From positions 1-43,929 of IMG/VR virus record IMGVR_UViG_3300032320_002037: a stretch of DNA of 43,929 nt. The stretch is one strand, 5' to 3'. Both the position numbers and the translations under genes were made by a program. The notes under the pieces were generated by a model that was not told the DNA's origin, did no database searches, and saw only the letters and a program-made list of their open reading frames with translations. Origin of the DNA: a virus (lineage: Duplodnaviria; Caudoviricetes). Of the stretch, positions 34,231 to 42,323 are shown piece after piece. The stretch's first letter is position 1. Each line of letters begins with the position of its first letter.

Positions 34231-34518
34231 TTACCACTTGGTTTTATCAGCCCAGTATGCAGCAGACATCTTGCCTTTGGCGATGTTTGAAGCGTGGCGG
34301 GCTTTGAATGACTCGCGGCGTTCGCGGGCAGAAGCAGATTCGCCCTCGGTTTTAGGTGAACCGGAGACTCCTTGCTGGCCGAAGCGGATGGTTTTTACCT
34401 GGGAGCCTTCTCTAGCGACGACAACGTGAGACTTGGTGGGATGGTTAGGTGTGCGCTTGGGTGTGTTGACGTCAGAGACACCGATGCGGTTTAATAGGGA
34501 TGAGATGTTAGAGGACAT
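34231..34518 (-). CDS. Small basic phage protein (widespread family of unknown function)
   Basis: KRTPNHPTKSHVV..IRFGQQG..RRESFKARH..SAAYWA..KW, a pattern I recall from many phages. Confidence 0.75.
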   Translation of the reverse strand: MSSNISSLLNRIGVSDVNTPKRTPNHPTKSHVVVAREGSQVKTIRFGQQGVSGSPKTEGESASARERRESFKARHASNIAKGKMSAAYWADKTKW

Positions 34519-34539
34519 AGGAATGTGAGTTTGGAATTA

Positions 34540-35060
34540 AGATGCCCGTCGTTACAGTGACGGAGCCGAGGCTGGCAAGTTGTGATTTAACGTCTAACTA
34601 ACAACTGCAACCGGACGACATGCTGGATATGTTAGCGATTATCAGTGCATGTTTTTAATATCGAAATCAGGTGCTTTTAACGCGGCATAGATTTAATCCT
34701 TCACCTCGGCAGTCCCTTTGTCCAGTGGGATCAGCAAATCTCTGGCCTAGCTTTTGAGCACCATACGGTGCCTTGGCTAGGTGGTTGAAGGCAAGCTGCG
34801 CGGTTTATCAGTCCGCCGCTTTACCCTCAAATCAACACACTGGTCAGGTCGCTCACAGCGGGCCATCATCTAGCCGTGGTGTTGGTAGTCGTCACTACTT
34901 AGCGAGAGGCTTTAATGCTTTGCATTCCAAGCACTGATGACTTCAACGCTGTGCCCTCACTGCAATGTGTTGATTTGAAGGTGGGTAGTTTAATGACTTG
35001 CCCAGGTCATCTGCAACTTAGTGGGTTTACAACCGTTACAACGAGTTTTCTAAGCTGCAA
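34540..35060 (-). ncRNA. Candidate large structured non-coding RNA (~520 nt)
   Basis: Non-coding gap in an otherwise gene-packed arm; 20-bp helix 34823-34842/34963-34982, nested helices, pseudoknots; G-U pairs in the right half favour the - strand. Confidence 0.65.
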
Positions 35061-35065
35061 ATTGG

Positions 35066-35722
35066 TTACACCAGACCGGCTGGGACTTCCAGCTCGCGGC
35101 GCTTGGCGTCGATTTCCAGCGCGCGGGCAAGGCCATCTTCCGTGAAGCCACCGATGTTGTCGAAGTTGTAGCCGGGGTTAGCGGCAGACCACTTGGCAGC
35201 AAAGCCTTCGGCAGTGACGGGTTGACCATCGGAACCAATGGAGCCAGCTTCGGCCATAGCGAGGATGCGCTTGGCGAGGGTGAAGAACTTGGCATCTGGT
35301 TCGGATTCGGCTTCTTCCGTAGAGACCTCGAAGGGAATGGTGTCAGCGACCTGCTGGGCAAGGACATTGTAATCAACTTCGGAGATGAGAGGAGCTTGAT
35401 AGTCGGCATCGCCGGGAGCTCCTTTGCCGTTCACGACGAGCTTGATGTAATCGCCTTCGGAGATGAGGATTTCCACGGTGTCGCCAGCGCGGTTCTTCTT
35501 CTGTTTGCCAGTGGATGGCACAGCGAGACCGGTGTGGGCAACGAGGGCCTGGACCATAGACTTGCGCTGCTTGTTGTTCCAGCCTTGGTAGAGGCTGTGC
35601 TTGATCGCAGCATGGCGGACGTCACGGGGATTGGAGAAGGCCACGAGGTCTTCAAGGGTCGCAGGGACCATGAGAGTGACGGTTGCGCCGAGAGTGCGAT
35701 TGGAGTAAGGAACGAGGTTCAT
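35066..35722 (-). CDS. Hypothetical protein, probably highly expressed
   Basis: 218 aa, strong C-ending codon bias, AC-rich leader. Confidence 0.75.
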   Translation of the reverse strand: MNLVPYSNRTLGATVTLMVPATLEDLVAFSNPRDVRHAAIKHSLYQGWNNKQRKSMVQALVAHTGLAVPSTGKQKKNRAGDTVEILISEGDYIKLVVNGKGAPGDADYQAPLISEVDYNVLAQQVADTIPFEVSTEEAESEPDAKFFTLAKRILAMAEAGSIGSDGQPVTAEGFAAKWSAANPGYNFDNIGGFTEDGLARALEIDAKRRELEVPAGLV

Positions 35723-35798
35723 TATGTTGGTTTGTGTTTTGGTTTGTGTTTTGGTTTTGCCAGCATTTGCTGGAAAGTTTGCCTTTTGGCAAGGTGGA

Positions 35799-42171: not shown

Positions 42172-42323
42172 GGGACTAGATGCCATTGTGTTTTATCGGT
42201 TTGTTGTTTTGTTGTCTGCTCCTTGGCGATTGAATAAATCAACCAAGCCCAGAGAAATACATGCAAGATGAAGAGCACTTCAGCGATGCGACGAATTGGA
42301 TTGTTGTCGTTAAAAGGTTTCAT
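42168..42323 (-). CDS. Small single-TM early protein, 51 aa (absent from the ORF track)
   Basis: MKPFNDNNPIRRIAEVLFILHVFLWAWLIYSIAK... Confidence 0.5.
   Translation of the reverse strand: MKPFNDNNPIRRIAEVLFILHVFLWAWLIYSIAKEQTTKQQTDKTQWHLVP

Follow-up and report, generated by a model that had tools for sequence, protein, structure and literature searches.

The window analyzed here is a stretch of 43,929 nucleotides that holds a complete phage record (43.9 kb, with terminal repeats present). The virion genes are encoded on the plus strand and the replication genes, namely primase, ligase, polymerase, methylase, exonuclease, and a UvrD-like helicase, on the minus strand. The polymerase shows a match of about 26% to that of the closest cultured phages. 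A gap of 547 bp (34519-35065) has a minus-strand gene on either side, in agreement with an earlier note, made from the sequence alone, that had described a gap of ~550 bp between genes. This gap is referred to as the RNA island, and its features are listed in Table 1. No tRNA gene was found within the window by ARAGORN and Rfam, and an Rfam scan of the window at E ≤ 10 returned only snoRNA and sRNA noise. A sigma-70 promoter scan gave zero promoter-like sites and one weak terminator-like match, at module C. With blastn, neither the gap nor C had a match among cultured phages, and the five matches among plasmids were at chance level (E 6).

The 218-aa gene is the constant upstream neighbor of the island. 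Its product had no match in Pfam, PHROG, and Atlas searches but has 457 relatives at E ≤ 0.001 among representatives at 50% identity. The predicted model is confident (pLDDT 85) and had no clear fold match (best VIA Z 5.4, rmsd 5.3, 83 aligned). Short C/A-rich words stand in tandem ahead of its start codon (35723-35780, minus strand), and no Shine-Dalgarno-like word precedes this gene or the 95-aa gene downstream. The latter gene is missing in L081-L083, located after module A in L186, and located after C in L193. It is an accessory gene that is mobile within the island.

Table 1. Features of the RNA island and its flanking genes, in window positions (z, folding z-score).
Feature	Position	Strand	Description
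Upstream gene	35066..35722	-	218 aa; anchor for finding orthologous loci
Slot 0 insert	35012..35059	-	10-bp hairpin around a smaller stem-loop; exchangeable; z -2.89
Module F	34982..35009	-	28-nt H-type pseudoknot, coremin-like; 4-bp stem 35006-09/34994-97; loop pairs with 34982-87; spacer UUAAACUAC
Module A	34823..34982	-	20-bp outer helix 34963-82/34823-42 around conserved core and insert slot 1; z -5.21
A core	34843..34962 (34951-62 and 34843-56)	-	CAG/CUG stem, 2-nt bulge, invariant symmetric loop UGAGGG/AGCGAC
Slot 1 insert	34857..34950	-	94 nt; crossing helices 34930-34/34879-83 and 34908-11/34872-75 (double pseudoknot)
Slot 1 insert, other stems	34936-40/34866-70; 34914-26; 34885-98	-	closing helix; two hairpins
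Slot 2 insert a	34782..34829	-	48-nt armless tRNA-like hairpin; 9-bp terminal stem and ACCA; Ile-type loop CUGAUAA 34805-11; z -3.08
Slot 2 insert b	34743..34781	-	two-stem hairpin with CCA end; CCA doubles as first strand of B; z -3.75
Module B	34709..34745	-	37-nt H-type pseudoknot; CCAG 34742-45 pairs with loop CUGG 34722-25
Slot 3 insert	34619..34708	-	unexplained; second CUGAUAA word 34639-45
Module F2	34575..34617	-	second coremin-like pseudoknot, 19-nt loop; also a descriptor match
Module C	34544..34574	-	31-nt near-invariant hairpin, probable 3-bp pseudoknot (CAG/CUG); ends 25 nt before next start codon
Downstream gene	34231..34518	-	95 aa; phrog_7595 (annotated unknown function); no Pfam match

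The folding of each strand was compared with shuffles. The minus strand of the whole gap folded clearly better than its shuffles (z -3.75; 0/100 shuffles as good), while the signal on the plus strand was weak (z -1.78; 7/100). The signal sits in the right half only (34745-35062, z -6.09 on the minus strand), and thus the claim that the gap is almost entirely paired was overstated. The left half (34543-34745) scored z +0.36 on the minus strand and z -1.02 on the plus strand. It lacks a folding signal because its conserved parts are pseudoknots, which are missed by nested folding. These parts are in the minus sense, the same as the flanking genes, and so the idea that the left half is read from the plus strand was not borne out. 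An alternation of G-U and G-C pairs on the minus strand was seen in F, the slot-1 insert, and B, where it is retained.

All helices named in the earlier note are present in the sequence. The outer helix 34823-42/34963-82 has 18 Watson-Crick and two G-U pairs on the minus strand, 34854-60/34947-53 forms all seven of its pairs, 35012-21/35050-59 has nine Watson-Crick pairs and one G-U on the minus strand, and the hairpin 34746-81 is present in the predicted fold. The putative gccgagg/cctcggc helix (34565-71/34704-10) is complete in the window (7/7) and in no other locus; at least 5/7 pairs are kept in 17/20 loci, with an invariant 3' side. The proposed pseudoknot tcgct/agcga (34849-53/34901-05) was not supported: it pairs 5/5 in the window, 4/5 in L190 and L198, and 3/5 in L200, with no compensatory change. 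The structured RNA of the gap is genuine and is encoded by the minus strand.

Relatives were collected through the upstream protein, which gave 35 loci (3 viral and 32 metagenome). After the removal of 7 short and 5 duplicate loci, 23 protein-anchored loci formed the census set. Searches with DNA patterns added further loci, and many matches that were due to chance were excluded by eye. All relatives are metagenome assemblies, and some mosaics could be assembly chimeras at the 30-40-nt constant blocks.

The counts across the 23 loci were 19 for F, 22 for helix A, 20 for the A core, 18 for B, 17 for C, 15 for D, and 9 for E; D and E are missing from the window's island, and in L216 no module was detected by the patterns used. 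The order F-A-B-C is retained wherever the modules co-occur, and single modules are lost independently. The modules are almost letter-identical across phages whose upstream proteins are 24-92% identical. The span from F to C is shortest in L193 (about 120 nt) and longest in L206 (about 600 nt), and the distance from B to C ranges from 86 to 359 nt. In L186, two protein genes lie between A and B. C is also present in four loci without a relative of the upstream gene (L138, L144, L152, and L153), where it is followed by a long ORF whose start we take to resemble a DNA polymerase exonuclease domain. The earlier note had read the gap as one large, ornate RNA of ~520 nt. This reading fails because modules are gained and lost independently, the span varies, genes are inserted, and C occurs alone elsewhere. 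What stood was the claim of an uncatalogued structured RNA under selection, as covariation was seen and no Rfam match was found. Instead of a single RNA, the gap is very probably a chain of small conserved modules that hold exchangeable folded inserts. Order and pairing are conserved for the constant modules (F, A, B, F2, and C; relatives also have D and E), and the inserts between them are exchanged among phages. A caution follows for other phages: long "ornate" intergenic folds can be strings of small parts.

Exchange was measured with insert types defined as clusters at 70% identity. Slot 1 holds 13 types in 22 loci, with the window's own type found in five of them, and slot 2 holds 21 types in 28 loci. 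The upstream proteins of L195-L199 are 98-100% identical, and their slot-1 inserts are unrelated in 9/10 pairs. L081 and L157 share a slot-1 insert that is 100% identical, with proteins that are 41% identical. Related lake phages thus swap folded RNA inserts very quickly.

Covariation among homologs gave compensatory changes in F, the A core, and the slot-1 insert, and weaker ones in B and C. The covariation shuffles take no account of relatedness and, therefore, B, C, and F2 are more weakly supported than F and A. Among 17 variants of F, 4/10 pairs change on both sides and 95.9% of cells are paired, compared to 15-47% in slid controls; the loop-spacer pairing exchanges A-U and G-C in 6/17 variants. 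F2 has one homologue (L212), in which 12/12 pairs are retained with zero compensatory changes. The closing stem of the A core covaries (CAC/GUG, AAG/CUU, and CGU/AUG), and in L185, L204, and L206 the outer helix around this core is another one altogether. Across loci, 24-162 nt separate the two strands of helix A. In L185, L186, L204, and L206, helix A encloses another, larger conserved core (about 140-160 nt between the strands, no Rfam match), and L165 has a third kind of core within helix A. For the slot-1 insert, 6/30 named pairs are compensatory, one of them in a crossing helix, and 99.2% of cells are paired; this comparison covers four sequences, the window and three distinct relatives, from which the structure itself was derived.

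F was compared to the coremin motif xrRNA-C and its Watson-Crick variant xrRNA-WCC, which are described from plant and other RNA viruses (PMC10520033, PMC10321173). The main text of both papers contains no mention of phages or bacteria under the terms searched. As in coremin (PMC10520033), F has a 4-bp first stem, a spacer of ~10 nt (UUAAACUAC), a pseudoknot between loop and spacer, and a hairpin directly downstream, which is helix A; in 25/27 contexts helix A directly adjoins F. The Watson-Crick loop-spacer pairing is shared with xrRNA-WCC. In contrast, the 8-nt loop of F (CUGRGYAN) breaks the YGAD/YGNNAD rules, loop 1 is C rather than the G of the WCC type (PMC10520033, PMC10321173), the second stem has 6 bp rather than 3 bp, and F belongs to a dsDNA phage rather than an RNA virus. 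Since its loop departs from these rules, F is likened to coremin and not classed with it. A stem-UUAAA-pseudoknot descriptor run on 45 island segments gave 34 unique sense matches, in 27/45 segments, vs 0 antisense. On the whole window it gave eight matches, including F and F2. One other, at 42289-42309 (plus), has a CGAC/GUCG stem on the strand opposite to the nearby genes and may be due to chance. Over the window as a unit, matches to the 13-nt coremin word showed no enrichment (10 at ≤3 mismatches vs 7.4 expected), and the two best of them are F and F2. A reading of the island as antisense to rRNA was rejected: the best match, 12 nt to E. coli 23S 2234-2245, falls within F, with ~0.1-0.15 expected by chance, the matching spacer end is kept in only 5/17 F variants, and the variation tracks the pseudoknot.

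B, C, and D share one position, after the slot-2 insert, and in most loci they start at the terminal CCA or CAG of the preceding stem. A single sequence, L140, supplies both of the compensatory changes seen in B, which fall in its 4-bp pseudoknot stem. Among 21 variants of C, 100% of cells are paired and 1/10 pairs is compensatory, and the pseudoknot pairs never vary. The near-invariance of B and C may stem from gene conversion and not from selection. A 20-nt pattern of C had 10 matches in GTDB genomes, and the hairpin was completed in 0/10. By eye, C resembles helix 69 and the 530 loop, with mismatches. D, a third pseudoknot similar to B and C (L081:3926-3968 and 29 other variants), has a shifted first stem, CAGG/CCUG, in L185, L224, and L241 (by eye). 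The slot-3 insert has no homologue among the fetched loci and no folding signal (z +1.43 minus, -0.55 plus).

Several inserts mimic tRNA anticodon arms or acceptor ends without decoding ability. Insert a of slot 2 has an acceptor-like stem with NCCA and a 7-nt YU-NNN-RA loop, as in tRNA. It was rejected as a tRNA, as it has no D or T arm and no cloverleaf, and ARAGORN and Rfam were silent. The 5' strand of this insert shares nucleotides with the 3' strand of helix A and, thus, the two folds are mutually exclusive. The same scaffold carries a CUUCUAA loop in L190 and L160 and an 8-nt loop in L191, and the loop of a second scaffold alternates between CUGUAAA and CUGUCAA; in both scaffolds the anticodon triplet varies within a retained CU...AA loop. 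Across islands, anticodon-type loops showed a modest enrichment, with 17 on the sense strand and 9 on the antisense strand (p 0.08), compared to 5.3 in loop shuffles. Under a looser test the two strands hardly differed (38/618 vs 41/832). Stems with NCCA numbered 82/534 sense vs 37/351 antisense, in loci that are not independent. Armless mitochondrial tRNAs exist, and insert a is similar to them in having only acceptor and anticodon arms; a literature search found no armless tRNA in phages. Species 1/2 of T4 and the stable RNAs of T5 are non-decoding stable RNAs among phage tRNA genes. The island is similar in its non-decoding RNAs and differs in having swappable slots.

Neither insert b of slot 2 nor, by blastn, the slot-0 insert has a homologue among the fetched loci, and an inner motif similar to that of the slot-0 insert was seen by eye in L081 and L217. 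The earlier note had stated that large phage RNAs often sit near tRNA genes; the relatives do have tRNA-like genes near the island, and the window has none. The relatives carry tRNA shapes detectable by Rfam, some with the anticodon arm replaced. Module E (L081, L083, L155, L157, L167, L180, and L190) is a tRNA frame downstream of D with an acceptor stem, a D-like arm, a T arm, and ACCA, and its anticodon arm is swapped for 20-100 nt of variable folded cargo. This design is like that of laboratory tRNA scaffolds for RNA expression.

We propose that this gap represents a single allele of an RNA-cassette island, hypervariable within a clade of uncultured phages of ~44 kb, in which barriers would protect a processed transcript with decoy RNAs; the chances for this reading are about even. 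The island would be transcribed from the minus strand within the message of the replication arm. Host nucleases would cut this message, and the pseudoknots would halt 5'-to-3' decay, with F (helix A serving as its downstream hairpin) and F2 as candidate barriers, and B and C by analogy. The outcome would be stable RNAs starting at each barrier, and C would also protect the next mRNA. Ordinary H-type pseudoknots were shown not to stop Xrn1 (PMC10321173), and bacterial RNase J1 is blocked by a flaviviral xrRNA (PMC5760640). RNase J may be absent from the host. A role of the pseudoknot modules as exonuclease barriers could go either way. The constant modules would also serve as blocks of homology at which recombination exchanges the inserts.

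In the weakest step of the model, the inserts would be decoys for host RNA-binding or tRNA-cutting defense proteins; Retron-Eco7 is an example of a tRNA-cutting defense (PMC12673091). Such a role, suggested by likeness to tRNA parts, is possible though doubtful, and it would explain the rapid turnover of inserts. A tentative and somewhat unlikely extension is a system of RNA-only cassettes, where an exonuclease-blocking scaffold stabilizes and exchanges a library of small anti-defense decoy RNAs. Equally tentative is the makeup of this library, which would include armless mimics of tRNA with exchanged anticodons, cargo in a tRNA frame, and aptamer-like pseudoknots. If true, RNA-only cassettes would be the RNA counterpart of anti-defense protein hotspots.

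Another explanation, which we consider unlikely, is that the constant modules are maturation signals that release the inserts. Helix A would be an RNase III-type stem, the stems with NCCA would be RNase P-type substrates, and B, C, and D or the A core would be new self-cleaving ribozymes. The start of B, C, and D at the CCA or CAG that closes the preceding stem in most loci is consistent with this, as are the frequent position of D a few bases ahead of a tRNA-shaped unit and the invariant loop of the A core between stems that covary. However, no Rfam ribozyme match was found at E ≤ 10, an HDV-like descriptor (run without a positive control) had zero fits on either strand, and no hammerhead core was found. 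The CCA is also dispensable, as L140 has ACGG/CCGU, and 31-37 nt is small for a ribozyme. The closest known case is that of the theta ribozymes, minimal HDV-like elements reported to release phage tRNAs (PMC10879173). In both, a short conserved element lies right behind a tRNA-like 3' end, but compared to the theta ribozymes as described there, the element of the island is a single H-type pseudoknot, and no nested double pseudoknot or catalytic junction was found. B follows a stem with CCA, and the unit upstream is a tRNA in L154 and L168 only.

It is distinctly unlikely that the island is one long noncoding RNA in which F-A-B-C form a single folded scaffold that accommodates variable domains at its periphery, in the style of GOLLD. 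The constant order of these modules would fit this explanation, and the putative helix between the tail of B and the head of C keeps at least 5/7 pairs in 17/20 loci. There is also a precedent in GOLLD, with a variable 5' part and tRNAs in a linker (bioRxiv 2024.12.08.627333). Compensatory changes are absent from this B-C helix, however, which would form at the expense of the stems in B and C, and the predicted fold has no helix linking both ends. Modules are lost singly, genes split A from B in L186, and other phages carry C by itself. Compared to GOLLD and ROOL as described in the same preprint, the island is similarly phage-encoded, pseudoknot-rich, and near tRNA islands (judged by tRNA matches in relatives), but it lacks a fixed fold of several hundred bases and its parts reassort. 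GOLLD, ROOL, and OLE were rejected as assignments: no covariance-model match was found in the window or in relatives (20 loci each, two scans), and there is no single fold of several hundred bases, with modules lost singly, a span of about 120-600 nt, and genes inserted.

A third explanation is that the modules are only message punctuation and recombination linkers, similar to PeSLs, and that the inserts are functionless, decaying relics of tRNAs. The exchange of inserts at constant blocks would be expected here, and HNH homing endonuclease-like ORFs were seen by eye right after C in L197 and L206, which could drive the spread of cassettes. The precedent is the PeSL cassettes of T4-type phages (PMC2839356), where conserved noncoding blocks also surround exchangeable cassettes in a hypervariable region. 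The cassettes in that account are ORFs, whereas those of the island are mostly folded RNAs, and the blocks of the island are several kinds of pseudoknots and helices with no sigma-70 promoter found. The lack of such a promoter and the weakness of the terminator-like match, present at C only, argue against this explanation, as do the six compensatory pairs among four diverged copies of the slot-1 insert, which is, therefore, under selection. We consider this explanation very unlikely. Last, a single-stranded DNA structure or a plus-strand RNA, an idea raised in the earlier note, is hardly credible: the left half folds slightly better on the plus strand, but the conserved modules of that half are in the minus sense, the alternating G-U and G-C pairs of F, B, and the slot-1 insert are retained on the minus strand, and the A-rich pseudoknot loops favor that strand by 34 to 0.

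Phage RNAs that act against defense systems are known from pseudo-ToxI of phage PhiTE, a decoy (PMC3475682). As described for pseudo-ToxI and the type III antitoxins (PMC3475682, PMC5086642), these RNAs are 30-40-nt H-type pseudoknots similar to the modules, but the island has no tandem repeats or identified toxin gene. A type III antitoxin array was rejected, as each module is single-copy in the window and the downstream protein has no Pfam match. The island is not GOLLD, ROOL, or OLE, a tRNA, or a type III antitoxin array and, by the tests run, is probably not a theta ribozyme. No description of the island surfaced in the literature searches, and the motif search matched nothing except a Chlamydomonas paper on an unrelated subject. 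The 10,000 candidates of Fremin et al. 2023 (PMC10690425), of which three of the six text supplements gave zero matches, may include some of the modules.

Phage tRNA islands contain many folded RNAs without an assigned function. This locus offers a natural comparison set, as its scaffold is fixed, each slot has more than 12 alternative inserts, and the folds are defined by compensatory changes. With RNAs of 30-100 nt, it becomes testable whether bacterial viruses have xrRNA-type barriers, whether there are new small ribozymes among the constant modules, and whether phages use tRNA-fragment decoys against tRNA-cutting defenses. No RNA run was listed among the sequencing runs with this sequence. 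Sequences of this kind also appear in three wastewater runs, guessed to be RNA, where 5-7% of words were shared and the contigs derive from relatives. One of these contigs repeats the L190-type changes in the helix 34936-40/34866-70.
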